Source of the DNA: an uncultured bacterium
GTDB taxonomy: Bacteria > BMS3Abin14
Assembly: GCA_965603295.1 (NCBI GenBank)
Contig: CBFDCL010000001.1
Coordinates: 506-64,505 of the forward strand
Direction: 5' to 3'
Length of the DNA: 64,000 bases
A program made the position numbers and the translations under genes. Under the pieces are notes generated by a model that had not been told where the DNA came from, ran no database searches, and saw only the letters and a list, made by a program, of their open reading frames with translations. Positions 1,133 to 61,958 of this stretch are shown one piece after another. The stretch's first letter is position 1; each line of letters begins with the position of its first letter.

Positions 1133-1469
1133 ATGCGATTTCAAATTTCATCCGCCTTCGCTAACGCCTCCCGACCAGCTACGGCGGAGGGGGATTCCAA
1201 ATTTCAAATTAAATCTCAGATCTCAGATCTCAAAATTTATCCAGGATTCAGGACCTATCCGCCTTCGTTAACGCCTCTTGACCAGCTTCCGACTTCATTT
1301 TCCAGGCAACGACGGACAAAACGGCGGACAGGAAATCCAAGATCCAGGGGAACCACGGTGAACGTTTAACGTAGCCCAACCCCACAACTTCAAACTTCAA
1401 ATCTCAAACCGCAAACAGTAATCCTGAGTTCTTAATCCTCAATCTTCAATTCTCAATTCTCAACTGTTT
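1133..1469. repeat. repeat-filled 450-bp ffh-rpsP spacer containing the type-2 composite element and an internally duplicated 35-bp block
   Basis: tccgccttcg(c/t)taacgcctc..gaccagct occurs at 1153-1187 and 1258-1292; (TCTCAGA)n, (TCAAAC)n and (TCAATTC)n tracts are present. Confidence 0.7.
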
Positions 1470-17570: not shown

Positions 17571-17576
17571 AAATAG

Positions 17577-17607
17577 TGCACAGGTGCACCAGTGCACTAG
17601 TGCACTG
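17577..17607. repeat. cluster of four GTGCAC palindromes (AGTGCAC heptamer tract)
   Basis: agtgcacaggtgcaccagtgcactagtgcactg; similar clusters at 25474-25508, 29020-29050, 61770-61795 and 61880-61910. Confidence 0.6.
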
Positions 17608-17655
17608 AATTCATAATTTTAAAATTTGAAATCTGAAATTTGGAATGGAGATTCC

Positions 17656-19921: not shown

Positions 19922-20151
19922 AATCTAGACTCCAGATACTAGACTCTGCTGATCTTCCCCCGACACCCCTGTACATCTGGTGCTTAACGCCCGATACGCC
20001 CACACATTGACATGCTGATACGTTTCAAAGGGAATGTACTCTCCCTGTTTTGGTTTACTTCTGTGTTTGGCATTCTGTATTCTGTATTCGTCATAGGAAC
20101 CAGGATTATTTTGAACCTTGGATTTGGATTCTTGAATAAGAGGATATACCC

Positions 20152-20946
20152 ATGGACTTCATGACCCACACTACCCTTGGCCGAACCGGCCTTTCGGTCA
20201 GTCGCCTGGGCATTGGTGCTTCCTATGGAGCGCCCGCATTCGCCCTAGAAAAGGCTTTTCACGAGCACGGGATCAACGCTTTTTACTGGGGTGCTTTGAG
20301 AAAGCCGAGCATGGGGGAAGCGTTGAAGAACCTGTGCCGCACGGAACGGGAAAAGGTCGTCGTCATGTTCCAGACCTACGACAGGTCCGGGTTTCTTATG
20401 AAACGGCGGCACGAGAAAGGGCTGCGGACACTGGGGATCGATCACGCGGACATCCTGATCATGGGTTGGGCCAACCGGGAGCCCGTGGGACGGTGGCTGG
20501 AAACAGCTGTCCGTCTCAAAGAGGAGGGAAAAGTGAAGCACCTCTGTGTCTCGGGGCATAAGCGGATGCTCCTGGGGGAGATGGCCGCCAGGCCTGACCT
20601 TCCCTTCGACGTCTATATGGTCCGCTACAACGCGGCTCACACGGGTGCCGAGCGGGATGTTTTTTCCTCTCTGCCCAAGGAAAACCCTCCGGGGGTGATG
20701 ACGTTTACGGCCACCCGATGGGGACAGCTCCTGCAGCCGAACCGGATGCCCCCTGGTGAAGAACCTTTGACCGCGGCGGACTGTTACCGCTTCTCCCTTT
20801 CAAATCCCCATGTTGACCTGTGCATGATGGGCCCGAGGAGCGCCGAAGAGCTGGAAAGCGGGTTGAGAGCCCTCCAACTCGGGCCTCTTTCGGATGAGGA
20901 AATGGGAAGGGTGAGGTGGATCGGGGCTCATGTGTACGGCCAGTAA
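20152..20946 (+). CDS. aldo/keto reductase family oxidoreductase
   Basis: AAGAGGA RBS; LGRTGLSVSRLGIGA N-terminal AKR motif. Confidence 0.7.
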   Translation: MDFMTHTTLGRTGLSVSRLGIGASYGAPAFALEKAFHEHGINAFYWGALRKPSMGEALKNLCRTEREKVVVMFQTYDRSGFLMKRRHEKGLRTLGIDHADILIMGWANREPVGRWLETAVRLKEEGKVKHLCVSGHKRMLLGEMAARPDLPFDVYMVRYNAAHTGAERDVFSSLPKENPPGVMTFTATRWGQLLQPNRMPPGEEPLTAADCYRFSLSNPHVDLCMMGPRSAEELESGLRALQLGPLSDEEMGRVRWIGAHVYGQ

Positions 20947-21100
20947 GCCAAACGGTGCGTTTATCGTTTATTGTTTAACGTTTAACGTGGTTTTCCTGGA
21001 CCTTGTGGTTCTTGAATTGATTTCAATCTTGAATTTTAAATTTTTATCTTTTCCAACCACTGTTCACTAATCACTGATCACCAATCACTTGGCTCCATTT

Positions 21101-23299
21101 CTACATCCTCCTGTTCTTCATGTATCCGCTTTTCATGGTTTTTTCCACGTACAGGCAGGCTTGACGGGAAAGGGCGATGAGCTTTTCAGGCCTGGGTTTT
21201 TCACCCTGACCGGATACCGCGGCTCCCAGAGCCAGATCATACCGTCCCCCGTGCTGTTCCCGGAAGTGCTCGATGAGGCGGTCGGCGTAGCCGTCCACCA
21301 GGGATGCATAGGTCAGGATGACAAACTCTCCCTGGGGCCGGCTCTGGATAAGATTGTCCTCCATTCTTCCATCATCCATGATGTGGAGGATGGTCTCCTC
21401 CATATCCCCCAGCGATTCGAATGAGTATGTGTCCTCAGAGGATGTCATGCCCGAGGCCGGGTTCACGTGCACGGTGAGGACTCCCACCGTTTTGCCCTCG
21501 GACAGGCGATTGGCCAACTCACCGGTGAACTCCTCGTCTCCGGGATGCCAGGCTGTGATTCCCCTCTGGGGACTGATGAGACCCTGGGTGGGCAGCGAGA
21601 ACCGGAAAGAGGTTTTCTCCCCGGGAGTGCTTGTGGCGGAAATGGTGCCTCCGTGCTGTTCCACCAACTCCTTCGTCAGGGAAAGGCCAAGCCCGGTTCC
21701 CTTGGATTCCGAATGTTCCTCGGCCGGTTCGTTGAGGATGCCCCTGTAGAAACGGTTGAAAACAAGGGATAGCTCCTCCTCTGAGATGCCTGGCCCGGTG
21801 TCGCTGACCTCGAAAACCGTATGCCCGTCCGAGGTGTGAAGGGCGATGTCGATGTGGACACCCGTTCCGCCGTACTTGATAGCGTTCCCGATGAGGTTAA
21901 CCAGGGCCTGTTCCACCCTGTCCCTGTCAGCGATGAGATTTGGGAGATCTTTTTCGGCGTGGAGCCTCACCACGGCTTTGCTGGCTTCGGCCTGAGGGTT
22001 GAGGAGCTTGACGGCGTTCTCCGCGATCTCGAGGGGGTTGAACGGTTCCTTGGTCAAGGCTAACTGTCCCGACTCGAGGCGGGCGAGGTCGAGGAAGTCG
22101 TTGATAAGCCGGTTGAGCCTCTTGCTCTCGTTGTGGATGATGAAGAGGTAGCGTTCGAGGGGTTCGGGTATGTCGTCTCTCCTGATCAGAAACTCCGAAA
22201 ACCCCTGAATCGAAGTGAGGGGCGTGCGAAGCTCATGGGATACGGTGGAAATGAGCTCCGTCTTGAGGTGATCGAGCTTGCGGATCTGAAGCCGGTCGAA
22301 AATCCCCTCCAGGAGTAGCCCGGAAAACTGCGTCAGGATGGCCTGGGAAACCTTCATCAGTTCCATGAACTCGGGGGAACCCTCCGGAACCGCCGAAAGG
22401 GCAATGCCGAAAAGGTTGTGCCGCGGGGGCAAAAGGCTCCTGAGGAGGCGAAGTCCGGAGCTGTTGAGGAGATCCCAGGCGAACCCCAGTTCCCGGAGGC
22501 GTTCGTTGTCCGGGTAAGGGGGGTGAAGTGATGCGGCAGCCAGGAACTGGTACACGGAGAAGCCGGAGGCGAAATCCATGACCGACATGTTGGTCCCCGT
22601 TTCCGGGTTAATGGTTCCTGCCCATGCCCGGTTGCTGCTCATCTCGCCTACGAGGATCATATGAGAGGATGATCCCAGAACGCTGTTCATCCCTCTGACC
22701 GTAGCCGGGATCAGGCCGGTCTCGATGTCCATGGATTTTCCATGGATTTCCTGGAGGGTGGAAAAGAGGGAGTTCGAGGAGATGCTTATGCGGTCGACCT
22801 CCTCCCACAGGTACAGGTTTTCCATCCCCATCCCAACCTGGAGGGCGAGGGATTTAAGGGTCCGGAGGTTTTCCTCGGTGAACCCCTCGTTCATCGTAGT
22901 ATCGGTGACGTTCATGACCCCGATCAGGCGCCCGCGGCTTTTCAGGGGAACGCTGATAAACGACCTGGTCCGGTATCGGTCCTGAAACTGAGCTGAAAAC
23001 CGGATATCCTGGTCCATATCGGGGACCAGGACGGCGTCACCGGTAGCGGCTACCCAGCCCGATACACCTTCTCCCACGGGGACTTTCACCCCTCCCATGT
23101 TTTCCGGGTAGCGACCGGCCCAGGCGGTCAGGGAAAGGTTCTGTCCCTGGGGGTCCAGGGAGAGGATGGAAACCCGCTCCGCGTCGAACAGCGCGAGGAC
23201 CCTGTTGCAGAAGGTGCGGAGGATCGTGACCTCATCAAGGTTGGAGTTAAGCAGTTCCTCCAGCTCCAGGAAAAGATCCTCCGTGATCTGTCGCGTCAT
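21101..23299 (-). CDS. sensor histidine kinase (GAF/PAS - HisKA - HATPase) with uncharacterised ~170-aa C-terminal domain
   Basis: GAF domain at the N-terminus, H-box (VSHELRTPLTSIQGF), N/G1/G2 boxes (NAIKYG, DTGPGI, GLGLSL), then an extra C-terminal region with no recognisable motif. Confidence 0.8.
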   Translation of the reverse strand: MTRQITEDLFLELEELLNSNLDEVTILRTFCNRVLALFDAERVSILSLDPQGQNLSLTAWAGRYPENMGGVKVPVGEGVSGWVAATGDAVLVPDMDQDIRFSAQFQDRYRTRSFISVPLKSRGRLIGVMNVTDTTMNEGFTEENLRTLKSLALQVGMGMENLYLWEEVDRISISSNSLFSTLQEIHGKSMDIETGLIPATVRGMNSVLGSSSHMILVGEMSSNRAWAGTINPETGTNMSVMDFASGFSVYQFLAAASLHPPYPDNERLRELGFAWDLLNSSGLRLLRSLLPPRHNLFGIALSAVPEGSPEFMELMKVSQAILTQFSGLLLEGIFDRLQIRKLDHLKTELISTVSHELRTPLTSIQGFSEFLIRRDDIPEPLERYLFIIHNESKRLNRLINDFLDLARLESGQLALTKEPFNPLEIAENAVKLLNPQAEASKAVVRLHAEKDLPNLIADRDRVEQALVNLIGNAIKYGGTGVHIDIALHTSDGHTVFEVSDTGPGISEEELSLVFNRFYRGILNEPAEEHSESKGTGLGLSLTKELVEQHGGTISATSTPGEKTSFRFSLPTQGLISPQRGITAWHPGDEEFTGELANRLSEGKTVGVLTVHVNPASGMTSSEDTYSFESLGDMEETILHIMDDGRMEDNLIQSRPQGEFVILTYASLVDGYADRLIEHFREQHGGRYDLALGAAVSGQGEKPRPEKLIALSRQACLYVEKTMKSGYMKNRRM

Positions 23300-23400
23300 G
23301 TTTCAACCTCCTGAGTGATCCTCGGTGGCGCTGACTCCCGATACTGCGACGGGATCGTTTCTCCGGCAATTTATCACAAAACGAAAGGGGAGGTAGGGAT

Positions 23401-23489
23401 AGAGAATTGAGGATTGAGAATTGAGAACTTAAACCAGTGATTGGTGATTCGTGATTGGAGGAAGGTTTGAGGTTTGATTTTTGAAGTTG
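23401..23489. repeat. composite heptamer element E-H-F: (GAGAATT)4-(GTGATTG)3-(GGTTTGA)3
   Basis: Same module order at 24335-24447, 37322-37402 and 61802-61863, at 54124-54200 as the reverse complement, and partially at 27521-27590 and 52074-52148. Confidence 0.75.
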
Positions 23490-23749
23490 CAGAAAATTCA
23501 CGTTGGATGTTTGACGTTGGACCTCTATTCTTCCCGCGCCCCACGCCCTGAGCTTGTCAAAGGGCGTCCCCTTCGCTAATCTCCCGACTGGGCTCTATGA
23601 CCTCAAACTTCAAACACCAAACCGTTCACTAATTATCAATGACCAATCACCAGTTTTTCTCGTTAAACATTGAACGTTAAACATTAAGCGTGTTTAATAT
23701 AAAATTCTTGCGCAAACATTTCCGCTACATCGGGGCAGGGGAGGATGGG

Positions 23750-24283
23750 ATGAAACAGATACCGGACAATTACAGGATCGTTCTGACGGCTGATCAGATC
23801 CAGGCCAGGATCAGGGAGATGGGGGCCGAGATCAGCCGGGACCTCGGGGGTGAGGCCCCGGTGGTGGTGGCCGTGCTTAAAGGGGCCTACGTTTTCCTTG
23901 CGGATCTGGTGCGGGCCATGTCTGTCCCCGTGGAGATCGATTTCGCACAGATATCCAGTTACGGGGACGAGACCGCATCCACCGGACGGATCAAGGTCAT
24001 GAAGGACATCTCCACACCCGTCGCCGGCCGGCACGTACTGGTGGTGGAGGATATCGTGGACACGGGACGGACGCTGCACTATTATCTGAACGAACTGCAG
24101 CAGCGCAACCCGGCTTCTCTGCGTCTGGCGGCCCTCATCAACAAACCTGAAAGGCAGGAGTTCACGCCGGAGGTTGACTACCTCGGATTCACGATCCCCA
24201 GCGGCTTTCTTGTGGGCTATGGGCTCGATCATGCGGGAAGATGGCGGGATCTGCCGGGGATTTACGAAGTGATCGATGCATGA
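23750..24283 (+). CDS. hpt: hypoxanthine phosphoribosyltransferase
   Basis: PRTase motif (VLVVEDIVDTGRTL) and Hpt-type flanking blocks; start at MKQIP. Confidence 0.85.
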   Translation: MKQIPDNYRIVLTADQIQARIREMGAEISRDLGGEAPVVVAVLKGAYVFLADLVRAMSVPVEIDFAQISSYGDETASTGRIKVMKDISTPVAGRHVLVVEDIVDTGRTLHYYLNELQQRNPASLRLAALINKPERQEFTPEVDYLGFTIPSGFLVGYGLDHAGRWRDLPGIYEVIDA

Positions 24284-24334
24284 TCATCGATCACTTCGAG
24301 TCCAAAGTCCAACGCCCAAAGCCCAAAGGGATAG

Positions 24335-24515
24335 AACAATTGAGGATTGAGGATTGAGAATTGAGAATTGAGAAAAAACAGTGATTAGTGATTCGTGATT
24401 GGTGATTGGAAAACGGTTTGAGGTTTGAAGTCTGAGGTTTGAAGTTTTACGTCAGAAGCCAGGATCCATAGGCCAGGAAGAAATTCACATTAAACATTAA
24501 ACAGTAAACGTTAAA
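24335..24515. repeat. composite heptamer element E-H-F followed by an (AAACGTT)n-like tract; direct repeat of 23401-23523 on the other side of hpt
   Basis: E 24335-24371, H 24378-24408, F 24413-24447, N' 24484-24515; preceded by (CCAAAG)n at 24299-24329. Confidence 0.75.
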
Positions 24516-24540
24516 CCTATATGCACCAGGGACTTTCTTT

Positions 24541-25425
24541 TTGAACATACTTTTTTATTTCGGCGTCGTCCTTATCTGGGGGACCACCTGGTTCGCCATT
24601 CTGTTCCAGCTCGGCAAGGTGGATCCCCTTGTCTCGATCATCTACCGCTTTTCCCTGGCTGCGTTGATGCTGATGTTCTACTGCATCCTCACCGGGAGGC
24701 GGATGCGGTTTTCCCTGCGGGACCATCTGTTCATGGCTCTGATGGGAACGTTTCTTTTTTCCCTGAATTACTGGTTGTTCTACGTGGCGGAACTCTATCT
24801 CGCCAGCGGCCTGGTGGCGGTGGTTTTTTCCACGATGGTCATCCTCAACATCCTTTTCGGGGTGGTCTTTATCGGTGCGCCCATACGGCCAAAAGTGGTC
24901 CTGGGAGCCCTTATGGGTCTGGCCGGGATCGCCCTGGTCTTCAGGCCGGAGCTGGCGGCCTTTACCCTGTCGGATAAGGGGTTGTTTGGTCTGCTGCTCA
25001 GCCTTGGAGCCACGATATCGGCGTCACTGGGGAATATCATCTCGGCTCGCAACCAGATGGTGCGGATTCCGGTGATCCAGGCCAACGCCTGGGGGATGAG
25101 CTACGGCGTTCTTTTAATGCTGATCACCGCTCTTCTCACCGGGAAGAAGTTCACCTTCGAGGTCACCGTCAGTTACGTCACATCCCTGTTGTACCTGGCT
25201 TTGTTCGGTACCGTCTTCGCTTTCGGAATGTACCTGACGCTCATCGGGCGAATCGGCGCCGACCGGGCCGCCTATGCGACCCTGCTTTTTCCCATCGTGG
25301 CCCTGGCGCTGTCCATGATGTTCGAGGGGTACCGGGGAAATCCGGGGGCTTTTGGAGGATTTGTCCTGATCCTCGCGGGGAACTTCCTGGCCCTTAGCAG
25401 GATGAAAAAACCCGTTGAGAGTTGA
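24541..25425 (+). CDS. DMT-superfamily (EamA) transporter
   Basis: 10-TM EamA-like profile; probable TTG start. Confidence 0.65.
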   Translation: MNILFYFGVVLIWGTTWFAILFQLGKVDPLVSIIYRFSLAALMLMFYCILTGRRMRFSLRDHLFMALMGTFLFSLNYWLFYVAELYLASGLVAVVFSTMVILNILFGVVFIGAPIRPKVVLGALMGLAGIALVFRPELAAFTLSDKGLFGLLLSLGATISASLGNIISARNQMVRIPVIQANAWGMSYGVLLMLITALLTGKKFTFEVTVSYVTSLLYLALFGTVFAFGMYLTLIGRIGADRAAYATLLFPIVALALSMMFEGYRGNPGAFGGFVLILAGNFLALSRMKKPVES

Positions 25426-25509
25426 GCGTTAAAGGTTGAGGGTTTGTGGTTTGCGGTGATGGGAAAAGTTTTCAGTGCCTCGATGCACCAGTGAACTTGT
25501 GCACTGACC

Positions 25510-25572
25510 CCTCAACTCTCAACCCTCAACTCTCAACCCTCAACTCTCAACCCTCAACTCTCAACCCTTAAC
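25510..25572. repeat. (CTCAACY)7 tandem heptamer array downstream of hcp
   Basis: cctcaactctcaaccctcaactctcaaccctcaactctcaacccttaac. Confidence 0.7.
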
Positions 25573-25581
25573 TTGGAACTA

Positions 25582-27225
25582 TTATTTCCCCAGTGCCTCA
25601 GCCAGGTCCTTGTCCACCTCCCCGATGGGGGCGATGCCGAAGTTGTCCACGAGCACCTGGAGAACGCCGGGCGTGATAAAAGCGGGCAGGGTCGGGCCCA
25701 GTTTGATGTTCCGGATCCCCAGGTGCAGCAGCGTCAGCAGGATGCAAACGGCCTTCTGCTCGTACCAGGACAGGATCATGGACAAGGGAAGGCTGTGAAG
25801 GTCCGTCTCGAAAGCGTCAGCCAGGGCCGATGCGATGCGGATGGCCGAGTAAGCGTCGTTGCATTGTCCAATATCCAGAAGTCGTGGGATGCCGCCGATG
25901 TCACCGAATTCCATCTTGTTAAACCGGTACTTTCCGCACGCCAGGGTAAGGATTACCGTGTCTTCGGGTGCCTTCTCGGCGAACTCGCTGTAGTAGTTGC
26001 GCCCGGGCTTGGCCCCGTCGCATCCTCCTATGAGGAAGAAGTGCCGGATGGCGCCCGATTTTACGGCGTCCACCACCGCCCCTGCAACGCCTAGAACCGC
26101 GTTGTGGCCGAACCCCACAGTGATGTTTTTTGCTTCCATGTCCTCAGCAAAGCCTTCCGATTCAAGGGCAGCCTCGATGACCGGGGAAAAATCGTCATTG
26201 CCAACGTGCCTGACCCCTGGCCAGGCCACGAGGCCCGTGGTAAAGATGCGGGCTTCGTAGCTTTTGCGGGGTTTCTGGATGCAGTTGGTGGTCATGAGGA
26301 TGGCTCCAGGGAACGCATCGAACTCCTTGTGCTGGTCCTGCCAGGCTCCGCCATAATTACCTACCAGGTGACTGTATTTCTTGAGTTCCGGGTAGCCGTG
26401 GCAGGGGAGCATCTCCCCGTGGGTATAGACGTTGATCCCCTTTCCCTTCGTCTGTTTCAGAAGGATTTCCAGATCTTTCAGGTCATGGCCGGAAACGAGG
26501 ATCGCCTTGCCCTTGACCGGCGTGATACGTACCTGGGTTGGTTCCGGGTGTCCGTAAACCCCGGTATTGGCCTCGTCGAGCAGCTCCATGACCCTCAGGT
26601 TGACTTCGCCCACTCTCATGGCCATGGCCACCAGGTCATCCGCCGAATGGTCCGTCGTGAGGTAATCGAGGGCTTCATGGAAAAAGGCGTTTATCCTCTG
26701 GTCAGTTTTCCCGAGAATGAGGGCGTGGTCGGCATAGGCTGCCATACCCTTGAGGCCGTATAAAATGAGTTTTTCGAGACCTGCTGCATCGTCCCCGACA
26801 GCCCGCTGCCGTATGGTGATCCCCACCGCACCGGCCTGGGCGAGGAGTCCGGCTCGGTCCTGGCCGGGGGAGAAGGCGGCTGCTTCGGAAATCTCCTCGG
26901 GTTTTTTCCCTGCCTGTCCGCAGGCGTCCTCGTAAAGTATTCTGGCGCGGTCACGGATTTGGATGCCCTGCCGGATCATGGCCTCGATCCGGTCAGGGTC
27001 GAAGTTCACGTTGGTGACGGTGGTAAACAGCGCTTCGATGACGAAGCGATCGATCGATTGATCCGCGGCCCCCAGTTGCCGTGCCCGATGGGCGTACTGG
27101 CTGATCCCCTGGACTGTGTGGATCAGGAGGTCCTGGAAGTCTGAAGTTTCGTCATCCTTGCCGCACACCCCGAACCTGTCGCATCCGGTCCCATGGGCGG
27201 TCTGCTCGCACTGGTAACAGAACAT
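25582..27225 (-). CDS. hcp: hybrid cluster protein (hydroxylamine reductase)
   Basis: Start [15 protein letters not shown] (N-terminal Cys cluster) with GGAGATAACC RBS; 547 aa; hybrid-cluster ligand regions. The ORF-track N-terminal extension was rejected. Confidence 0.9.
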
Positions 27226-27285
27226 GATGGTTATCTCCTTTTCTAAGATCAAAATAGTATCAGCATATCTTTTGCTGTCATGGAA

Positions 27286-27327
27286 AGTATATCGCGCCTT
27301 GTGCGGAGAAACCTTGACGGGGGTCAA
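27286..27327 (-). promoter_or_regulatory. hcp promoter: CRP/FNR-type palindrome TTGAC-N4-GTCAA centred 29.5 bp upstream of a TATACT -10
   Basis: Palindrome ttgacgggggtcaa at 27314-27327 (top strand), centre 27320.5. The TATACT -10 hexamer is agtata on the top strand at 27286-27291 (minus-strand sense), giving class-II spacing with the site at about -41.5. An AGGAGA RBS sits before the hcp ATG. Confidence 0.5.
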
Positions 27328-27628
27328 TAAACGGTGTTTGACGACCTGGCGAGGGGGCGACTGGGCGACGGGGAGGGAAGAGAGGGATCTAACCTCCAAT
27401 GCTTGCCAAGCCGTAGCTTTAGCGAAAGCTGGTCCAACGCCTGCCCACCGTAGCCTTGCGCGAAGGTGGGTCCAACGGGAGAGGCAGTTCAGAGTGCAAA
27501 GTTCAGAGTGCAGAGGGAACATTGTTGAGAATTGAGAATTGAGGGTTGGAAATCCAAGAATGCCGTTTGCTGTTTGTAGTTTGAAGTCGCGAATTTGAAA
27601 TTGTATGTCTGGAACCAGGAACTAGGTA

Positions 27629-28300
27629 CTAGGCACCAGATACTGCCTTGATGTTCTCCGGCCCGTTGTTTCCCGGCGCGTTGACCTTCTTCGACACGTC
27701 CCAGGCGTCCATCTGCCCGGCGGGGTAAAGGACGAGGAGGGGAGACAATATCTCCGGGTCCTGAACGGCGTTGTCAAGCCACAGGTCGCGCTTGTCCCTG
27801 CGGATGATGGCAGGCATGCGGTCGTGGATGGGAGCGAGAAGTTCATTGGGCTGGGTGGTCACGATGCTGCAGGTGCGGATACTTTCCCCTTCCGGCGAAG
27901 TCCAGTCGGAGTAGAGCCCCGCGAACCCGAAGGGCCGTCCGTCCTTCATGGTGATGAAGACCGGTACCTTCCCCCCTTCGGTCTTGCGCCACTCGTAGAA
28001 CCCGTCGGCGGCGATGAGGCACCGGTGTTTTTTAAAGGGTCCTTTAAAGCTCGGTTTTTCCGCCAGAGTCTCGGCTCGGGCGTTGATCATGCGGCTGCCG
28101 ATGGACAGGTCTTTCGACCATGGGGGGATGAGGCCCCAACGGGCCAGCATGAGTTGGTTCCCGTCCTCGTTCACCACCACCGGAACGTCCTGCGTGGGGG
28201 CTATGTTCCAGGAGGGGCGGAGGGGGATCTCCGGACTCTGGAGGTTGAATTCCTGTTTTAGGAGGGGGAAAAGTTTAAATTGTACGTATCTGCCACACAT
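27629..28300 (-). CDS. SOS-response-associated peptidase (SRAP/YedK family)
   Basis: Starts MCGRY (catalytic Cys2) with conserved SRAP blocks. Confidence 0.8.
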   Translation of the reverse strand: MCGRYVQFKLFPLLKQEFNLQSPEIPLRPSWNIAPTQDVPVVVNEDGNQLMLARWGLIPPWSKDLSIGSRMINARAETLAEKPSFKGPFKKHRCLIAADGFYEWRKTEGGKVPVFITMKDGRPFGFAGLYSDWTSPEGESIRTCSIVTTQPNELLAPIHDRMPAIIRRDKRDLWLDNAVQDPEILSPLLVLYPAGQMDAWDVSKKVNAPGNNGPENIKAVSGA

Positions 28301-28327
28301 ATCATTTGTCGCCATAGTCCAAAGAGA

Positions 28328-28461
28328 TAAGTCCTCAGAGATAAGGGTACTATGCTCAAACTTATCACGTATACTTAGGACTTAGGACCCATTTATCCCA
28401 TTCTCCTGCGCTGATAAACGTATTTTCATGCAAAGCGGCTTATTGGAACCGCTCCTCGGGA
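28328..28461. repeat. mosaic intergenic element, copy B (modules Y 28328-28390, X 28396-28455; order swapped relative to copy A)
   Basis: About 85-90% identity to copy A modules; stems are conserved while loops differ. Confidence 0.65.
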
Positions 28462-28502
28462 ATCCTCACGTACGTCACAGTCCAGACTCCAGATACCAGT
28501 AA

Positions 28503-28955
28503 CTAGACACTCGGAGGAGCGAGCAGGGCTCGCTCCTCCGCATTCGGCAATATCCCGAACAACTGGCCCTCGATAACCGTTTCGTCCCTCTGGTTGACGA
28601 ATATTGCCGAACACTTGACGCGCCCGCGCTCATCCATCTCGTCGATGGTGAGGGTACAGGTTACCGTGTCGCTGAAGTAGACGGGAAGGCGGAAGCGAAA
28701 GTTCATTCCTGAGGCCAGCATGGCAAGCTGGCCCCCGATCTCGGACATGAGACTGCCCACGTGAAGCCCGTGGCAGATCAGACCATCCAAACCTTTTCCC
28801 TTCGCATATTCCCTGTTGGAGTGCACCGGGTTGTGGTCGTTGGAAACATCGGTAAACAGATGGACGTCCTCTCCGGTGAAGGTTCGTGTGACGGAGAAGG
28901 AGTCCCCGACGGTGATTTCCCCCTCAATGAGTCTGCGGCGGATGGTGGCGGTCAT
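28503..28955 (-). CDS. MaoC-like (R)-hydratase, hot-dog fold
   Basis: Hot-dog motifs (NDHNPVHSN, ICHGLH); start trimmed to MTATIRR because the upstream codons are encoded by a heptamer repeat. Confidence 0.6.
   Translation of the reverse strand: MTATIRRRLIEGEITVGDSFSVTRTFTGEDVHLFTDVSNDHNPVHSNREYAKGKGLDGLICHGLHVGSLMSEIGGQLAMLASGMNFRFRLPVYFSDTVTCTLTIDEMDERGRVKCSAIFVNQRDETVIEGQLFGILPNAEERALLAPPSV
28511..28539 (-). terminator. perfect 13-bp GC-rich stem-loop (cggaggagcgagc-agg-gctcgctcctccg) at the 3' end of the MaoC-like gene
   Basis: Exact inverted repeat; lies within the last ~12 codons of the MaoC ORF as read; no strong U-tract follows. Confidence 0.35.
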
Positions 28956-29071
28956 TAATCTCTCCGGCAAGAAAATTCCAAATTTCAAAATTGATCTCAG
29001 ATCAAAAAGTTCCTTGTGCGCATTTGTACCCGTGCATTAGTGCATTGAATCACGGATCTCAACCCCAAACC

Positions 29072-29914
29072 TCAAACTTCAAACTCATTGTTTTGCCCGA
29101 GCTTCTCCCTCAACTCTTTCCTGAACCTCTTCACGTCCTCGGTCACTCCGGATAAAATCTCGCCCTTTTTATAAAAATCCATGAACTGGATGTTCGCGAG
29201 TTCGGGGTGAACCAGGATGTCCGGCCCCGAGGAGGACATTTTGCCCCTGACGATGGAGGCCTGCATGATCTGGAAGGTTGAGAAAATGTTCTCCAGCATG
29301 GAGGGTACAGGGTGCTCGTCGTCCGGGACTTTTTGCCCCGATACATCGATGGCCGCAAGGATGTCGCATTCGGACCGGATCAAATCGTAAGGGAGGGGGT
29401 TAACCGTGCTGCCGTCAGTAAGGACCCTGCCGCCGAGTTGATAGGGTTCCAGGAGGACGGGAACCGAGATGCTGGCACGGAGGGCCTGGATGAGCGGCCC
29501 AGACCGGAAAACAACCTCCTCGCGCTTCCAGAAGTCGGTGGCGACGATGCGAAGGTCGAGGGAAAGTTCCTCGAAGGAGAGAACCGGAAGGTGTCCCCTC
29601 AGGAAATCCTCCACTTTTTTCCCCTTGAGAACCCCGAGAGTGCTGAAAACGGAAAAGTCCAGCATGCCGGTCATCCGGCGAATCCCCATCCCGTCGAAGA
29701 TTTCCTCGATTTGCCTGCCGGTGAGCCCCCCCGCGTAAAAAGCCCCGATCACCGCCCCGATGGATGTACCGGAAATGATGGAGGGGCGGATGTCCATCTG
29801 GTCGAGAGTTTTCAAAAAGGCAATGTGGCACAGCCCCTTGGCCCCTCCGCCCCCCAGGGCCAGGCCGACACGACGGGTGCTCTTGTTTGCGGATTTCAAT
29901 ATAAGATCCAACAT
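29072..29914 (-). CDS. patatin-like phospholipase
   Basis: GGGAKG oxyanion motif, GTSIGA nucleophile elbow and DGG motif; N-terminus trimmed out of the repeat tract. Confidence 0.75.
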   Translation of the reverse strand: MLDLILKSANKSTRRVGLALGGGGAKGLCHIAFLKTLDQMDIRPSIISGTSIGAVIGAFYAGGLTGRQIEEIFDGMGIRRMTGMLDFSVFSTLGVLKGKKVEDFLRGHLPVLSFEELSLDLRIVATDFWKREEVVFRSGPLIQALRASISVPVLLEPYQLGGRVLTDGSTVNPLPYDLIRSECDILAAIDVSGQKVPDDEHPVPSMLENIFSTFQIMQASIVRGKMSSSGPDILVHPELANIQFMDFYKKGEILSGVTEDVKRFRKELREKLGQNNEFEV

Positions 29915-29954
29915 CCAAGGTCCAAGGTTGAACTTCAAACTTCAAACTTGGAGT

Positions 29955-31517
29955 TTAGAACGTTCCCGCCCCCCAACGCTCCTGGAAACGGTACACCCCG
30001 GTTTTGATGAACCGTTTGAGCCCGTTTTCCTGCCAGTCCTCGTAGGGAAGAGTGTGGCTCAGGCCGTCGGAGTTATCCCAGAGGGTGTCGAAATAACGGT
30101 TAAAAGCCGCGGTGATGTGAGGCGCGTTGTCCAGAAGGAGATCGGCCTCAAGGTTGAAGTTGCCGATGTTGCGCCTGGTCCAGTTGGCGGAACCGGTAAT
30201 AAAGACGCTGTTTCCGGAATGCCTGTATATTATGGATGCTGATTTGGTGTGGAACTGTTCGCCGTGGGTGTCGGCCCAGCGAACGGAGATATCGTGTTCA
30301 TCGGAAAGTTTCATCAGTTCGGCTGCCACGGGCCGATTGGGAATCCCTATCTTCCTCATTCCAAAAGCGTCGCGGTTCGCGTCCAGGATAAGACGGATGG
30401 TGACGCCCCGTTCGACGGCTTTTTTTATCGCTTCCACGATCTCCCTCTGGGAGAGATAAAACAGGGCGATACGGACCTCGTCCCCCATGCTGGTGCCTTC
30501 AAACAGGCTCACCAGGGAACGGCCCACGGCTCCCTCCGTGAGCACTTTGACTTCCGGCCATCCCGGGGCTGCTGCTGTGCCTCCTGTCAGGCCAACTGCC
30601 TGCCTTCTGACGGACTCGGCCTTAAAAAGCAGGGCATCCGTTGTCCCGGTAATGAGGTTGTTTTGACCTTCCAGGCTCCATCGCAGAACCTCGAGCTCCG
30701 AGTGAAGAATCTCCAGAACCGATCGTCCCCTGACGTGGAGGGCCATGTTGGAATGAGCGGAGCTGCCGTCAGCGGGGTTGAGGCTTCCGATGAGCATCTC
30801 CAGGCCGGTTTTTGAAGAACCGGCGACCACCACCTTCCGATGGTTGGCGTTGAACCTGAGCATCCTGCCGAACTGGAGAATCGATATTTCCGGCCCGCCT
30901 GTCTCGAAAGGGTTGGAAAGCCTCGGAGCCCCGGCCCATTTTTTAAACATGGGGGAGTTTAGGACCTTTTCAAGGATGGACCAGTAAGGAGCATAGATCC
31001 TGTTCGAATCCGAGAGGAAAGTAAGGTCGGTGGATACAACCGGTATCCCTGATTGGAAGAGGTCCTTGAAAAATCCCGGTTGGCTGGATCCGTAGATGCG
31101 GTTGATCGGGTCGGAAAGAACGATAATGTCAAGGTCGGGTATTTCCTGCTTTCTTTGGATAAGGGCCTCGGCCAGTTCCGCAGACAGCTTGCGGTGTTCC
31201 CCGGGGACGCTTCCTTTCCAGGGGTTCCAGAGGAACATGTCGAGGAAGAGGAACCGGTCCGCCCTCCCGATCATGGCCAGGATCTCGTCGAAAATCTCCT
31301 GGTTAAAGACCCGTTTACCGGCTGTGGGGTCCCAGGCCGTATCGTCGATGAGGAGCCTGATGTCCCCGGGGGGGGTGGGAACGTGTGCGGCTTCGATGTC
31401 GAACCCCGGGGGCGCGGGTTTCAGGGTGTAAAGCAGTAGAGGGGAAAGGACAAGGGCAACGGCTGCAAGAGACCATATGGCGGTTGCCTTCCAGTGGCGG
31501 GAAAAGAGGTTTTTCAT
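29955..31517 (-). CDS. phospholipase D / cardiolipin-synthase-like protein with two HKD motifs
   Basis: N-terminal TM helix; HRKVVV and HTKSASI HxK motifs. Confidence 0.7.
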   Translation of the reverse strand: MKNLFSRHWKATAIWSLAAVALVLSPLLLYTLKPAPPGFDIEAAHVPTPPGDIRLLIDDTAWDPTAGKRVFNQEIFDEILAMIGRADRFLFLDMFLWNPWKGSVPGEHRKLSAELAEALIQRKQEIPDLDIIVLSDPINRIYGSSQPGFFKDLFQSGIPVVSTDLTFLSDSNRIYAPYWSILEKVLNSPMFKKWAGAPRLSNPFETGGPEISILQFGRMLRFNANHRKVVVAGSSKTGLEMLIGSLNPADGSSAHSNMALHVRGRSVLEILHSELEVLRWSLEGQNNLITGTTDALLFKAESVRRQAVGLTGGTAAAPGWPEVKVLTEGAVGRSLVSLFEGTSMGDEVRIALFYLSQREIVEAIKKAVERGVTIRLILDANRDAFGMRKIGIPNRPVAAELMKLSDEHDISVRWADTHGEQFHTKSASIIYRHSGNSVFITGSANWTRRNIGNFNLEADLLLDNAPHITAAFNRYFDTLWDNSDGLSHTLPYEDWQENGLKRFIKTGVYRFQERWGAGTF

Positions 31518-31921
31518 GATCTCAGTGTGACCGCTTAGCCGGGATCGTGTCAACAGTAGATCCAAGAGGAATCAAAGCCCAATGCCCAAAGACCAAAGAA
31601 AACACAGGTGATTAGTAACTGGTGACCCCTCGACAGGCTTCCTCCTTCGCCTGAAGCTTAGGTGGACAGGCAGGGGATCCGGGGGGTCCAGGGAACAGAG
31701 TCCAGAGTCCAGAGAAAAGAAGGATCCAAGGTCCAACATCCAGGAAAACCACGTTAAACGTTAAACAATAAATGAAAAACGTTATTTCCCTCTGAGCACT
31801 GAACCCTGAACAGCTCTTCTGCCTCATTGAATCCTTGAAGACCGGGTCGATTAAGGATAACCTTTCCTGAACGGATTGGGCCGGTAGGGGGAAACCTGGT
31901 GTATTGACAGGGAGGCAAGAA

Positions 31922-32212
31922 ATGTCCGAGAAAAAGAGCGTATGGAAAAATTTTACTACGGGGCAAACCTGGCTGCGGGGCTTGTTCATGCTCCTGTTCG
32001 CCCTGATTTACAGCTTCGCGGAGGTCATCGTTGGCATCGTGGTTCTGCTCCAGTTCCTGTTCGTCCTGTTCTCCGGCGAAGAGAATCGCCGGTTAAAGGA
32101 GTTTGGTGCGGGGCTGTCCGTCTATATCTACCGGATCATCGCGTACTGGACCTATAACTCGGAGGAGAAGCCGTTCCCCTTTGCCCCGTGGCCAGAGAGT
32201 GATGAGACATAG
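31922..32212 (+). CDS. small hypothetical membrane protein (96 aa)
   Basis: Two predicted TM helices; no recognisable family. Confidence 0.4.
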   Translation: MSEKKSVWKNFTTGQTWLRGLFMLLFALIYSFAEVIVGIVVLLQFLFVLFSGEENRRLKEFGAGLSVYIYRIIAYWTYNSEEKPFPFAPWPESDET

Positions 32213-32391
32213 TTTCATCACCTCGGTGCGAAAGGCGCAAAGCGCTGGGATGCCCAAAAGGGAAAATCCAGGGATGGGTTGGAAATCTTTGAGGAGACAG
32301 GAGCTTCGATCCCCCCCTCTCCGTGTCTCCGCGTCTCCGTGTCAAACGGTCTAGACAAGAATTAACCTGTCTGTCACATAGAGAACCCCAT

Positions 32392-33294: not shown

Positions 33295-33395
33295 CGAGAT
33301 ATATGCCTCCAGTTCCTAGTGTGTGTCTGGACCTGGAAACCAGGAACCAGGTGCAAGATACTGCCCTTCTGCACTCTTGACGGCCGAAAAACAAT

Positions 33396-33443: not shown

Positions 33444-33449
33444 TGGGCC

Positions 33450-35870: not shown

Positions 35871-37343
35871 ATGGCCATGAACCGGGGTTTTACCGAAGAG
35901 CCTTCCGGAGATCTTCCGGACCACCTGGCACGAGTGAAAAGCTACGTACTCTCGGTTGGGGAATCCGCAGTTGACATTGCGGTCTCCATCCTGGCCCTCG
36001 TTATTGTGGGGCGTTTCTACGGGCCCGAGGGGATGGGCGTCTACACTTTCCTCATGTCCGTCTTTGTGATTGTTGTTTTCCTGTCGGAAGTCGGTATCGA
36101 CAAATGGATCGAAAAGGAACTGGCATCCGAGGGGCAGATTGATACTTCCCGAATGCTTGCCGAGGCAAAGGGCGCGGTTCTCCTCTCTGGACTGGCGGGC
36201 TGTCTGGCGATGTTGATTTTCGGAGCCTGGGCTTCGAAAAGCCCAACAGTGGCCGGGGGTACCTGGCCGGGGTTTGTTCTCCTTGCCCTTGCCGTGCCTC
36301 TGAACCTCAGGTCAGGGCTTCAGGTGTCGGTGCTCCACGGACAGGGAAAGCCCGGTGAGGCGGCTCGAGCGGGGTTCGTCAAACGCTCTGTTTTTCTGGC
36401 AAGCGTATTTACCCTTGCCTATCTTCGCTTCCGGCCCGAGCTGCTCATGGCTGGTTTTGTTCTGTCCGAGGCGGCATCCCTGGCTTCGGCCAGGAGGCGT
36501 GTCAGGATGCCTTCCATAGGCGCGGTTCTCAAGAGGATCCGTGGGGTCGGGGAAACGTTCCGGATGGGCTCACAGTATTATTTTACTCACGAGGCGCTCA
36601 AGGTCCTCTTCTTCGTGGATTTTTTTATCCTTGGGTTGTTCGTGTCTGCCACTCAAGAGGGGTCTTATGCCCAGGCCTCGGTTCTGGCCCGTTTCTTCCT
36701 GCTCATCCCTCTGGGGGCGGCTCCCCTTTATCGGGTCAAAGTGTACAGGGCTTCGGGTTCCGGGCAAGGAGAGATCTTTTCCGATTCCGCCCGGACCGCA
36801 GCCAGGCTTTTCACTCTTCACTCGATGGCGGGGTTGTTGTTCCTGCTCTACTTTCCCCATGTTCTCAGGGTCGTATTCAGGGTCCAAGGAGATACACCTG
36901 TTTTTTTCCAGGTTTTTTCCCTCCTTCTCCCGGGTTTGCTTTTATTTGCTTCCACTCTTGTTCTTGAACCGTTCTTCGGTGCCAGTGGGCGGGAAGAAGA
37001 CCTTAACCGTATCGCCCTGAAGGTTTTCATCCTCAACGCGTTCCTGAACTCCTACCTGATCCCTTACGCGGGGGTCCTCGGCGCCGCAACCGCTACGACC
37101 ATCTCACTCTCCGTGTATTTTGTCCTGTTTTCCAGGGAACTCGGGGAAATCGGTACCATTCCCCTTGGCTCTTACCTCCTGAGCGGGATCCTGGTGTATG
37201 TCAGCTACCATGTTTTATTTCCGGTTCAACCTTATCTTTTCATTGTCTTGCCCCTGGTTTTCGTCGTCCTGCCGGTCTTGTTCTGGGTGTTGGGTTTATT
37301 CGGTCAGGGGCAGGGAAAAAGACAATTGAGAATTGAGAGTTAA
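35871..37343 (+). CDS. polysaccharide biosynthesis protein / Wzx-like flippase (MOP superfamily)
   Basis: About 14 TM helices; the C-terminal 7 codons and stop are supplied by a GAGAATT repeat. Confidence 0.6.
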   Translation: MAMNRGFTEEPSGDLPDHLARVKSYVLSVGESAVDIAVSILALVIVGRFYGPEGMGVYTFLMSVFVIVVFLSEVGIDKWIEKELASEGQIDTSRMLAEAKGAVLLSGLAGCLAMLIFGAWASKSPTVAGGTWPGFVLLALAVPLNLRSGLQVSVLHGQGKPGEAARAGFVKRSVFLASVFTLAYLRFRPELLMAGFVLSEAASLASARRRVRMPSIGAVLKRIRGVGETFRMGSQYYFTHEALKVLFFVDFFILGLFVSATQEGSYAQASVLARFFLLIPLGAAPLYRVKVYRASGSGQGEIFSDSARTAARLFTLHSMAGLLFLLYFPHVLRVVFRVQGDTPVFFQVFSLLLPGLLLFASTLVLEPFFGASGREEDLNRIALKVFILNAFLNSYLIPYAGVLGAATATTISLSVYFVLFSRELGEIGTIPLGSYLLSGILVYVSYHVLFPVQPYLFIVLPLVFVVLPVLFWVLGLFGQGQGKRQLRIES

Positions 37344-37768
37344 GAATTTCAGCCGGTGACTGGTGATTGGTGACTGGGGAACGGTTTGATGTTTGAAGTT
37401 GGATAACCGCGCTGTCATCGCGAGCTGGCATCTGCGCGAAGCGATCCCATAGTGAAGGTTGAAAATCGAGCCTTGGACAGGCTCAGGCCGGGGGAGTTGA
37501 AAATTGAGGATGAACGACAGTGGATCTTTGGGGTCAGAGACCAGCTTTTCGGAAGCCCCAATCCGGATGTCTAAAGGCCAGGGAAAACGGTGATTAGTGA
37601 TTGGTGAATGGAAGATGATGATCAGTTTTACGTTTGAAGTTCAATCTTGGATTCTGAATCTATTCCTTCTTCAACTTTCCACCTTTTTTCTTCCTGTTCT
37701 GTTCACCATTCCCAGTGTTTAACTTCAAACCCGAACATCAACTTCCAAACTCTCAAACTCTCAAACTC

Positions 37769-39290: not shown

Positions 39291-39525
39291 CCGGGGGACC
39301 CGCGAGTCAAGAATGCGGCTTTAAGAGCGGATCCAGGATCCAGGAACCAAGATCCAAGAAAAAATCCAGAGATCAGAAACTAATTGGAAATATGAAGACT
39401 CTAGATTCAAACCACGAATCTCAACTTGAAACCTCAAACTGCAAACTTCAAACACTAACCCTCAACTCTCAATTCTCAACTGCCTTTCCCGTTGGACATT
39501 GGACGTTGGACGTTGGACTCTGCCT

Positions 39526-51062: not shown

Positions 51063-52086
51063 CAGGTTCCCGGATTCCCTTCCGGGGTGTTCCCGTTTCC
51101 CCCGAATATTCTGCCTTCTGATCACGGTTATCTTTCTGGTTTCCGGGTGTTCCGGTTCGCGAAAGCCCGTTCGTGAGACCCGCTTCCTGATGGGGACCCT
51201 CGTCGATGTGATCGCCTACGGGGACCAGGAAACGGCCGCCGAGGCGGTGGGCCGGGCCTTCGAAAGGATGGCGGAGGTGGAAGAGGCATCTCATAGTAAG
51301 GGCTTGGGTTCCCTTCTTGGGGCCATCAGGGACGGAAAGGGTGCCCTTCTTACCGGTGATGCCGCTCTCGTCATGGAAACGGCCCTGTCCGTCGCTGTGG
51401 CCAGTTCGGGGGCTTTTGATCCCACTCTGGGGGAACTGGTGGAACTGTGGGGGATCGCCACCGGTCATCCGGAAGTGCCCGATGACGAGAAGATCAAAGA
51501 GGCCCTTTCCCGTTCCGGGTACCAAAGGATCCCGGAGACAGGGTGCTGTCCCGATGGGATGAAGGTGTGGCTGGACCTGGGCGGTGTGGCCAAAGGGTAC
51601 GCGGTGGATGAAGCGGTCAAAGTGCTGAAGGAGGCGGGGGTCCCCTCGGGGATCGTTAACGCGGGCGGGGATCTGAGGTCCTTCGGTCAAAAGCCGGGGA
51701 AAATTCCCTGGAAGATCGGGATCCAGAATCCCGATGACCCTCAGGATCTGGCGGGGGTCCTGGATGTTAACGAGGTCTCCGTCGCGACCTCGGGGGATTA
51801 TCAGCGATACTTTGAGGTGAGCGGTGTCCGGTATCACCATATCCTCGATTCGACCACCGGACATCCCGCACGGTCAGGGGTCCGCAGTGTGACAGTCCTC
51901 ACGGATGACTGCGCTCTTGCCGATGCCCTGGCCACAGCCGCTTTCGTGATGGGTCCCGAAAGGGGCCTGGGTCTGCTGGAGGCCTGGGAAGATGTGGAGG
52001 GGATCATCATTTCCCAGGACGGTACCTATCACCTGACGTTGGGCATAGGAACGAAGATCCCGTTTGAGAAGCGAATTGAGGATTGA
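51052..52086 (+). CDS. apbE: FAD:protein FMN transferase ApbE (lipoprotein)
   Basis: Lipobox (LVSGCSG); ApbE motifs (DLGGVAKGYAVD, GGD); the stop codon lies inside a GAGGATTGAG repeat. Confidence 0.8.
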   Translation: MMIDRFPDSLPGCSRFPRIFCLLITVIFLVSGCSGSRKPVRETRFLMGTLVDVIAYGDQETAAEAVGRAFERMAEVEEASHSKGLGSLLGAIRDGKGALLTGDAALVMETALSVAVASSGAFDPTLGELVELWGIATGHPEVPDDEKIKEALSRSGYQRIPETGCCPDGMKVWLDLGGVAKGYAVDEAVKVLKEAGVPSGIVNAGGDLRSFGQKPGKIPWKIGIQNPDDPQDLAGVLDVNEVSVATSGDYQRYFEVSGVRYHHILDSTTGHPARSGVRSVTVLTDDCALADALATAAFVMGPERGLGLLEAWEDVEGIIISQDGTYHLTLGIGTKIPFEKRIED

Positions 52087-52324
52087 GAATTGAGAGTTGA
52101 GGATTGAGAAAAAAGTTTGAAAGTTTGAGAGTTTGAGGTTTGAAGTTGTGAATTCAGGAGACAGGAGCCAGAATCCAGAAGGCAGCATTTCTTTGGCCTT
52201 TGGGCATTGGGCTTTGGGCTGTTCTTCCAATCACCAATCACTGGTCACAAATCACCGAAATTTTCTTGGATCTTGGATCTGTTTTGAAATTTGGAATTTG
52301 AAATTGCCTTTTGAGATTTGAGAT

Positions 52325-54123: not shown

Positions 54124-54200
54124 AACTTCAAACCTAAAACATCCAACCAATCACCAATCACGGTTTTTATTCTCAATTCTCAATCCTCAATTCTCAATTT
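54124..54200. repeat. composite heptamer element in reverse-complement orientation (F'-H'-E')
   Basis: caacttcaaacctaaaac / ccaatcaccaatcacgg / ttctcaattctcaatcctcaattctcaa; overlaps the pgeF stop. Confidence 0.7.
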
Positions 54201-61757: not shown

Positions 61758-61958
61758 TCTCCGGAGTGCAGGATATAGAGTGCAGTGTGCAGAGGGTAAG
61801 AACAATTGAGAATTGAGGATTGAGAATCACGGTTTGAAGTTTGAGGTTTTGAGTTTGAAGTTGCCGATTTGCTTTGTCTCTGCACTTTACACCCTGCACT
61901 CTGCACTCAATTCTCTGGACTCTGAACCCTGAACTCTGAACTCTGAACCGGCCTTTTT

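Follow-up and report, generated by a model that had tools for sequence, protein, structure and literature searches.

Heptamer repeats of cyanobacteria have been known since about 1990, and Elhai and colleagues reportedly described small dispersed repeats embedded in the heptamer arrays of Nostoc in 2008. The present analysis concerns a composite of such heptamers in an uncultured bacterium (GTDB lineage Bacteria; BMS3Abin14). The DNA examined is a stretch of 64,000 nucleotides (GenBank assembly GCA_965603295.1, contig CBFDCL010000001.1, positions 506 to 64,505), referred to here as the window. An initial annotation of the window had marked, at 23401-23489, an intergenic element made of three consecutive heptamer tracts and had listed further copies of it. 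The tracts are coded here as E (GAGRATT), H (GTGAYTG), F (RGTTTGA) and A (ACGTTNR), with a prime for the inverted form.

The sequences of cyanobacteria known as STRR (short, tandemly repeated, repetitive) are contiguous intergenic 7-bp units, with several heptamers per genome and sometimes inverted arrays capable of forming hairpins, and a role in transcript stability or translational coupling has been proposed for them (PMC2670836). The GGGNATC and GGGGA(C/T)T repeats of Xanthomonas and Nostoc are over-represented genome-wide in non-coding DNA (Rehm et al. 2015, PMC4692102). They show a preference for four units, vary in length and sequence among close relatives, and lie with the G-rich strand on the coding strand, at most 50 bp from a stop codon or overlapping it and nearer the 5' open reading frame (ORF) whatever the orientation; the authors could not find a function for them (PMC4692102). 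Direct repeats of TAACTGA, with two to six units, occupy many intergenic sites in marine Beggiatoaceae, cyanobacteria and Bacteroidetes (MacGregor 2015, PMC4679880). For this heptamer, which is the same in unrelated phyla, a post-transcriptional role was proposed and is unproven (PMC4679880). In Nostoc PCC 7120, repeats of the form (TTTTGAA)3-4 lie close to start codons (bioRxiv 10.1101/2022.06.06.494920). Heptamers were reported to be the most over-represented repeats of the long simple-sequence type (LSSR) in many bacteria (Mrazek et al. 2007, cited through PMC4679880).

The element of the window resembles STRR in its contiguous heptamers, in the presence of several heptamers per genome, in its intergenic location and in some inverted arrays. 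It differs in its units, in its different, anaerobic lineage, and in that at least 10 families form recurrent ordered composites with shared linkers; no description of such a fixed tract syntax was found for STRR. With the GGGNATC repeats it shares tracts of about four units and the placement of the G-rich strand near a stop codon and nearer the 5' ORF (16/17 and 13/14, see below). The GGGNATC repeats are a single quadruplex-capable family, whereas E, H and F lack GGG and several families stand in fixed order. The TAACTGA repeats are likewise single-family and lie just upstream of start codons, whereas the E-F composite lies at gene ends. Other tracts of the window, (ATTTGAA)n ahead of start codons, resemble the (TTTTGAA)3-4 repeats of Nostoc PCC 7120. 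Two features of the STRR/LSSR class were found: the units are head-to-tail 7-nt copies, and they are concentrated in non-coding DNA, with period-7 tracts occupying 19% of intergenic but 0.8% of ORF bases. The statement of the initial annotation that no described element has this composition was too strong, because contiguous heptamer repeats are a described class (PMC2670836, PMC4692102, PMC4679880). Within this known class, the ordered composite with shared linkers is apparently new; no description of the recurrent ordered composite, of the shared linkers or of the breadth of the tract vocabulary was found in the literature.

A dispersed family with an E-F core

Metagenome contigs were scanned with a pattern of two to three E units, 25 to 55 bases and then TTTGAAGTTG. 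Because this pattern specifies 27 bases, no chance matches are expected. The scan revealed 16 loci, of which 3 lie in the window, 9 elsewhere in the same organism, 2 in a relative of 51% G+C and 2 in an organism of 47% G+C. Eleven new copies were obtained in this way, and every one is an E-F copy without H. Since all 11 lack H, the core of the family is an E tract followed by an F tract on the same strand across an A-rich junction, with H as an optional tract inside this junction. The three modules had been claimed to stand always in the order E, H, F. The E-before-F direction was confirmed, but H is missing from the copy at 61802 and from all 11 new loci.

Alignment of the copies revealed a conserved 5' edge, GGGA.AGAACAATTGAG, and a conserved 3' edge, GTTTGAAGTTGC. 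Beyond the 3' edge, many copies carry a short non-repeat linker followed by an A tract. The linker GC[GA]GGGATGGAATCACGTTCAAC is common to L133 and L141 (L numbers designate sequences other than the window), and the linker GCAG(A/G)AAA..CACGTT is common to L132, L147, L139, L137 and position 23490 of the window. The shared non-repeat linkers and edges indicate that the E-F copies are a dispersed paralogous family and did not originate independently. Given that these edges and linkers recur across loci, slippage alone is insufficient to explain the fixed module order, as the initial annotation had argued. An earlier scan of genome contigs with a 17-base E pattern, GAGRATTGAGRATTGAG, for which about 280 chance matches are expected in 596 Gb, gave at least 120 loci across many phyla; none from this organism was among the matches listed.

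Within the window, double units of E were matched 17 times against 0.01 expected, those of H 20 times against 0.48 and those of F 29 times against 0.16. A simple period scan of the window revealed 65 period-7 tracts of any sequence, compared to 0.2 in shuffles; the same scan gave 1 tract of period 6 and 10 of period 8. Tandem Repeats Finder returned 110 rows, mostly of period 7 and nearly all intergenic. Heptamer tracts have a median of 3.9 units and cluster around four units across all families; in the E-F element, a single tract comprises about 3-5 units. E, H and F are just three of at least 10 heptamer families with which the intergenic regions are filled. Among the rest are ACGTTNR (A), CTTGGAT (B'), CTTTGGG (C'), ATTTGAA (G), CTCTGGA (D'), CCAGGAA (K) and AGTGCAG (T), and octamers such as GAGTTTGA stand beside them. 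In the window, E is followed by F on the same strand in 9/9 E tracts. F is also next in 11/13 E tracts outside the search anchors, the two exceptions being E-T-A-B' in L132 and E-H-X in L141. The repeats are not an assembly artefact, a possibility raised in the initial annotation, because independent ENA, JGI and Logan assemblies carry the sequences at 99.5-99.8% identity.

Polarity relative to genes

Gene context was derived from greedy ORF calls, with a Pfam check where these were ambiguous. The E-F composite is polar: its E end typically follows closely on the stop codon of a same-strand gene or provides that codon itself. The E end is closer to its 5' neighbor ORF in 16/17 evaluable copies. 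Eight contexts have convergent genes; in every one of them, the distance of the E end is -23 to +64 nt to the stop on its own strand and 49-447 nt to the other gene. In at least six cases the upstream ORF terminates in the first AATTGA of E. Among the copies in co-directional contexts, three have the sense and one (27521) has the antisense orientation; where the flanking genes diverge, the gene on the opposite strand starts right next to the E end. Of the E-, F- and H-type arrays that lie no more than about 120 nt from a stop codon, 13/14 are sense. A general rule that the G/T-rich strand of any tract points off the nearest ORF was rejected (30/56 tracts), and the polarity is limited to the E-F composite.

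Tracts of (ATTTGAA)n, with 17 matches against 0.19 expected, lie in sense orientation 10-20 nt upstream of start codons (6798-6827, 17617-17646, 38926-38948 and, on the minus strand, 28975-28990). At times they are paired with an inverted copy right behind the preceding stop codon (6744-6771/6798-6827; also L151:3364-3480).

A reiterated binding platform, an option also named in the initial annotation, in which each tract type would be a site array for a sequence-specific DNA- or RNA-binding protein and the ordered tracts would position several proteins at gene boundaries, is a putative and rather unlikely explanation. The units have a common YTRR core on one strand, as read from the sequences, the tracts have about four units, and some families are position-specific, such as (ATTTGAA)n ahead of start codons; for the start-codon heptamers of Nostoc, reporter deletions led the authors to infer a partner protein (bioRxiv 10.1101/2022.06.06.494920). 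However, no candidate protein was identified, the unit sequences drift freely at R, Y and N positions, and the elements are not conserved at orthologous sites.

In-frame arrays in rimO and possible evolution in place

One copy lies within a gene. In L139, rimO contains the reverse complement of E-F-A-F in frame; this stretch separates the UPF0004 domain from the radical-SAM domain (L139:1640-1800) and adds about 50 residues, TSNFKLTGNVQRLTSNVQRDLPATSNLKPQTSNVESNASNPQSSILNSQS. An alignment of relatives revealed that the E' part of the RimO array, encoding an NSQFSILNSQS-type peptide, is common to at least three or four species. The tracts beside E' are F, A and F in L139; L151 has (TTTGACG)n grading to (GTTGGAC)n there, and L152 has (TCTGCGT)n. 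In the RimO alignment, distant RimO proteins have no heptamer-array insert. In-frame arrays of 10-50 low-complexity residues, encoded on the stop-free strand, were also seen in the RimO linker of several related species (L151:2330-2450, L152:10349-10412).

Several units are one substitution apart, namely GGATTGA in E, GGTTTGA in F, CGTTTGA, and CGTTGGA in A. Because units are related by single steps and the tracts that follow E in rimO differ by species, unit mutation together with local amplification could produce part of the tract order in place. Carried to its full extent, such evolution would make the composites a neutral by-product, in which slippage and unit mutation generate adjacent related tracts in place and E-F-A is a one-substitution path with no role. 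This is a possible explanation that deserves serious, if tentative, consideration. The single-step relation of E, F, CGTTTGA and A speaks for it, as do the orthologous rimO linker, with E common to at least three species and different later tracts, the rapid turnover between relatives, the weak RNA structure, the length of about four units in all families and the failure to find a function for the analogous repeats of Xanthomonas or Nostoc (PMC4692102). In-place growth would not, however, make non-repeat linkers and edges identical across more than 10 loci or the E-before-F direction invariant, and it would not put the E end nearer the 5' ORF in 16/17 copies. Two processes are needed: the gradation of units and the rimO site are explained by evolution in place, and the common linkers and edges and the invariant direction by spread of the formed composite.

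Gain, loss and recombination of tracts

The E-H-F copies are constant in unit number among eight strain contigs (L001-L008) of 99.6-99.8% identity, and unit numbers differ between paralogous copies. Strain contig L004 lacks 25427-27523 (2.1 kb), including a Prismane/CO-dehydrogenase family gene. The endpoints of this deletion are direct E-type tracts, GTTGAGAGTTGAG at 25414 and GTTGAGAATTGAG at 27524, the latter in the copy at 27521. In the relative L148, whose hypoxanthine phosphoribosyltransferase is 91% identical, the spacer between this gene and EamA has 101 nt compared to 257 nt in the window; the C tract (24299-24328) is kept, E-H-F and A are missing, and the K tract is inverted. E-H-F was absent from orthologous intergenic sites in L148, L150, L129 and L131, and relatives at 85%, 84% and 73% identity carry other heptamers or none at such sites. 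Tract density in relatives ranges from 5.6 to 17 per 10 kb and is zero in a relative of 64% G+C. Whole tract blocks are present or absent between close relatives, and tracts recombine with one another.

Three further differences were seen in these sequences. The array (CCCTCAACTCTCAA)n at 25509-25573, with 4.6 copies of a 14-nt double unit, is the sole tract array observed to vary in length among L001-L008 (14 nt shorter in L001, 28 nt longer in L003). L148 likewise lacks the Prismane/CO-dehydrogenase family gene at that place, and L004 has an additional 77-nt deletion within a histidine-kinase gene (21958-22033).

Dispersed intergenic mosaics are also known in the form of the bacterial interspersed mosaic elements (BIME) of enterobacteria and the BOX elements of pneumococci, in which modules stand in a set order with a variable number of internal modules. 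They are frequent between genes of one operon or behind stop codons. The repetitive extragenic palindrome (REP) and BOX modules are imperfect palindromes of 35-60 nt, both strands of which fold; REPs, in addition, have a link to REP-associated tyrosine (RAYT) transposases. The initial annotation had read the composite as REP/BIME-like or as a miniature inverted-repeat transposable element (MITE). The likeness to BIME and BOX is restricted to the ordered module mosaic. E-H-F consists of non-palindromic 7-nt tandem units and has no DNA structure. The imperfect palindrome with a stem-loop on either strand that marks REP/BIME was not found (DNA z about 0 to +0.7; antisense RNA 0 kcal/mol). The terminal inverted repeats of a MITE are missing as well, the edges GAACAATTGAG and GTTTGAAGTTGC not being complementary.

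A REP/BIME- or MITE-type non-autonomous element moved by a transposase is accordingly ranked as highly improbable. It would suit a dispersed family with defined edges, the presence or absence of whole blocks and the in-frame copy in rimO, which is reminiscent of the Rickettsia palindromic elements inside genes. However, neither strand has a DNA hairpin or cruciform (-2.2 to -0.5 kcal/mol, z about 0 to +0.7), and inverted repeats and inverted termini are lacking inside 24284-24540 and 52040-52240. No target-site duplication was visible by eye, either between the window and L148, where replacement affects the spacer's entire right side, or in the aligned copies plus flanks, and no dedicated direct-repeat scan was made at the edges. 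The rimO array is common and graded across species and is not a clean insertion. No transposase, whether of the RAYT (IS200/IS605-like) type or another, was found among the subset of proteins scanned, the sequence of this organism amounting to about 100 kb. Since tracts are seen to recombine and signs of a transposase are missing, copies would be spread and lost mainly via recombination or gene conversion between shared tracts, with slippage adjusting the unit number only.

Strand asymmetry, folding and terminators

E-H-F has one strand with almost no C, on which every unit contains TGA. With the 7-nt period, all three frames are therefore closed within three units. The opposite strand is free of G and for this reason has neither stop codons nor ATG, GTG or TTG. 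RNA folding gave a mean minimum free energy (MFE) of -11.6 kcal/mol for the sense RNA and of -1.25 kcal/mol for the antisense RNA, with many antisense copies at 0. In the sense RNA, E units are predicted to pair with F units in a ladder of five A-U or G.U pairs between GA/GA mismatches, with H at the apex.

A structured RNA, in which E and F would be the arms and H the apex of a G.U/GA ladder hairpin serving as a 3' stabilizer or terminator, is an improbable reading of the modeled folds. The E:F ladder is the MFE structure of most copies, the sense strand alone folds, and the variable R positions of E and F face U when read from the sequences. Some copies also score well, the best being 24330-24450 at -23.9 kcal/mol (z -3.5) and the copy of L135 (z -3.5 to -3.8). 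Against dinucleotide shuffles, however, the mean z of the sense RNA is -0.77 over 22 copies. The E:F duplex (-11.7 kcal/mol per 4 units) is weaker than the duplexes of E or F with several other families, and the unit numbers of E and F do not co-vary among copies. No intrinsic terminator, in which a U tract would stand behind a G+C-rich stem, is present in or beside the elements, and the U tract itself is missing. Terminator-like sites numbered 24 compared to 26.0 in shuffles for 20001-40000 and 21 compared to 26.2 for 44001-64000, most of them inside ORFs. An Rfam search of the kind recommended in the initial annotation produced nothing for E-H-F: Rfam 15 gave no matches at the gathering score in the window and none at E<=1 in 23300-24560. 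As the cause of the fixed order, the ladder hairpin was downgraded on account of the mean z, the better pairing of E and F with other families and the uncorrelated unit counts. Matches to sigma-70-like promoters were at background level in 20001-40000 and 44001-64000.

A G-quadruplex was considered and rejected. E, H and F lack GGG, and many units (GAGAATT, GTGATTA) lack even GG, so that the G-runs needed for a canonical quadruplex are missing. The sole tract type of the window capable of one is (CTTTGGG)n, with GGG runs 4 nt apart, at 52191-52220 and in reverse orientation at 24299-24328 and 31573-31599.

Copies of the composite in the window

Reading of each listed copy revealed four E-H-F copies in the window (23399, 24335, 37321 and, on the minus strand, 54200) and five E-F copies without H (61802, 52072, 27521 and, on the minus strand, 1386-1463 and 39420-39480). 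The initial annotation had counted at least five full copies. Those given as 23401, 24335, 37322 and 54124 are full, but the one at 61802 consists of E, 'CAC' and then F. The two partial copies it had listed are both present, 27521 in degenerate form and 52074 with its start at 52072; the two E-F copies at 1386-1463 and 39420-39480, both on the minus strand, had been missed. The copy at 54124-54200 had been called an exact reverse complement; it has a like module order on the minus strand and is not the exact complement of another copy.

The copy from which the analysis started comprises, on the plus strand, an E tract of GAGRATT x3.7 at 23399..23427 (identified by sequence reading and repeat finder), an H tract of GTGATTG x3 at the E/F junction (23437..23458) and an F tract of GGTTTGA x3.7 at 23463..23489, which terminates in the conserved 3' edge TTTGAAGTTG. 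The E-H-F extent of 23399-23489 agrees with the earlier one, but the A tract at 23500..23522 on the plus strand (ACGTTGG/ATGTTTG/ACGTTGG), behind the linker CAGAAAATTC, belongs to the composite too. This linker plus A tract is also present in L132, L147 and L139. Downstream, F'-H' arrays on the minus strand at 23600..23656 are an inverted partner of H-F at 23431-23487 (57 nt, 74% complementary).

The plus-strand composite at 24335..24516 lies between the hypoxanthine phosphoribosyltransferase and EamA genes. It consists of E (24335-24374, x5), H (24380-24409, x4) and F (24415-24447, x4.7), beyond which a CCAGGA-type tract and A (24487-24516) follow; ahead of it is a C tract of CCAAAG-type units (24299-24328). 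In the other two E-H-F copies, the upstream gene ends inside the element. ORF 35811-37343 has its stop within the first E units of the copy at 37321..37402 (plus strand), and the minus-strand ORF 54187-54921 has its stop within E of the copy at 54124..54200 (minus strand).

The E-F copy at 61802..61863 (plus strand) has a gene for an ABC-transporter binding protein on one side and a permease gene on the other; two (AGTGCAG)n arrays, inverted relative to each other, bracket it at 61764-61799 and 61887-61922. The copy at 52072..52148 (plus strand) has the stop of the upstream ORF 51046-52086 in its first E unit. The degenerate copy at 27521..27590 (plus strand) is the sole copy that is antisense to both neighbor genes. 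On the minus strand, an E-F-A-B' composite at 1334..1463 (E' 1429-1463, F' 1386-1416, A 1355-1372, B 1334-1350) begins 6 nt past the stop of the minus-strand ORF 1470-2825, and a copy with E-like units at 39420..39480 (E' 39457-39480, F' 39420-39453) lies 45 nt past the stop of ORF 39526-40947.

Other repeats in the window and in other genomes

Octamer arrays were found at 108-179, 37746-37775, 56713-56739 and 57802-57830, and also at 17574-17606, 32318-32343 and 33461-33495. The octamers GAGTTTGA/AACTCTCA resemble an E/F hybrid unit plus one base; TAGTGCAC and TCTCCGTG have no relation to E/F. At L140:400-470, about eight AGTTTGAR units are followed by E-like units, the opposite of the usual E-then-F order.

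A second, non-heptamer family occurs amid the tract mosaics. It has a core of CCTTCG(C/T)NAA..GCTACGG with short complementary G/C flanks, e.g., TCCCCCTTCGCCAAGGCTACGGGGGA, and was seen at 1150-1190, 1255-1295, 23540-23590, 27395-27477 (a 38-nt unit x2.2, reverse), 57855-57895 and L140 at about 500-590. With 5 matches to the core motif where 1.24 are expected, the motif by itself lends this family weak support.

Inverted intergenic arrays of the form (AATTGAG)n-loop-(CTCAATT)n are present in Thermoanaerobaculia, Blastocatellia, Desulfonema magnum, Saprospiraceae and a metagenome-assembled genome of Desulfobacteraceae (L018:2335-2425, L072:4838-4895 and 6226-6300, L104:1520-1590, L058:7206-7345, L033:5160-5295, L045:866-915, L049:6230-6300 and L037:1490-1560). 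Long single GAGAATT arrays were also seen in other phyla, e.g., in L122 and L013, this heptamer being judged without a control heptamer. In the organism of 47% G+C (L138:6752-6880 and L143:4837-4980), an E array is followed by the H-like ATGATTACCAATGATTG and by TTTTGAAGTTG; a short loop separates these from an E-like array in reverse complement, and the whole forms a long near-perfect hairpin between convergent genes.

Discussion

The reading we favor, to which we attach about even confidence, is that E-(H)-F-(A) is a recurrent "word" in lineage-specific, STRR-like intergenic heptamer mosaics and also has a role at the transcript level. The polarity and the extreme strand asymmetry suggest such a role in the transcript or during transcription. 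The specific function that we would prefer, that of a polar end-of-gene module acting in the transcript or during transcription, is putative and on balance doubtful. Such a module would close all reading frames behind the gene. In sense orientation it would form a G/U-rich, weakly paired 3' trailer. RNA from antisense or convergent read-through would be C-rich, G-free and unstructured over 70-120 nt and would make an ideal Rho-loading site. Sites of Rho loading are C-rich, G-poor and unstructured in RNA.

Several results weigh against the favored reading. The tracts as a whole show no common polarity, the G/T-rich strand reading away from the nearest ORF in 30 of 56. The copy at 27521 is antisense to both neighbors, and the copy in L139 is inside a gene. 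The sense RNA folds on average no better than its shuffles, E and F are not each other's best partners, and their unit numbers vary independently. Part of the tract order could, moreover, have arisen in place.

A broader proposal, which we regard as quite unlikely, is that the heptamer tracts are a position-specific "vocabulary" in which each family would have its own factor or its own transcript shape, and that the composites would mark gene boundaries in a lineage without canonical terminators. The E-F tracts right behind stop codons and the (ATTTGAA)n tracts right ahead of start codons would be examples of such words. A bolder variant would derive the shared order from templated array synthesis.

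The lineage, as seen in the window, is an extreme case of intergenic heptamer repeats: about one fifth of its intergenic DNA consists of heptamer tracts of at least 10 families, with a syntax that recurs and a polarity with respect to genes. If the polarity is functional, the composite would be a simple, orientation-dependent gene-end signal, acting for example by frame closure or by a block to antisense read-through. If it has no function, slippage, unit mutation and tract recombination would be able to build and spread ordered composites without a transposase, with consequences that are visible in these genomes as the deletion of a gene between tracts and as in-frame low-complexity inserts in RimO.

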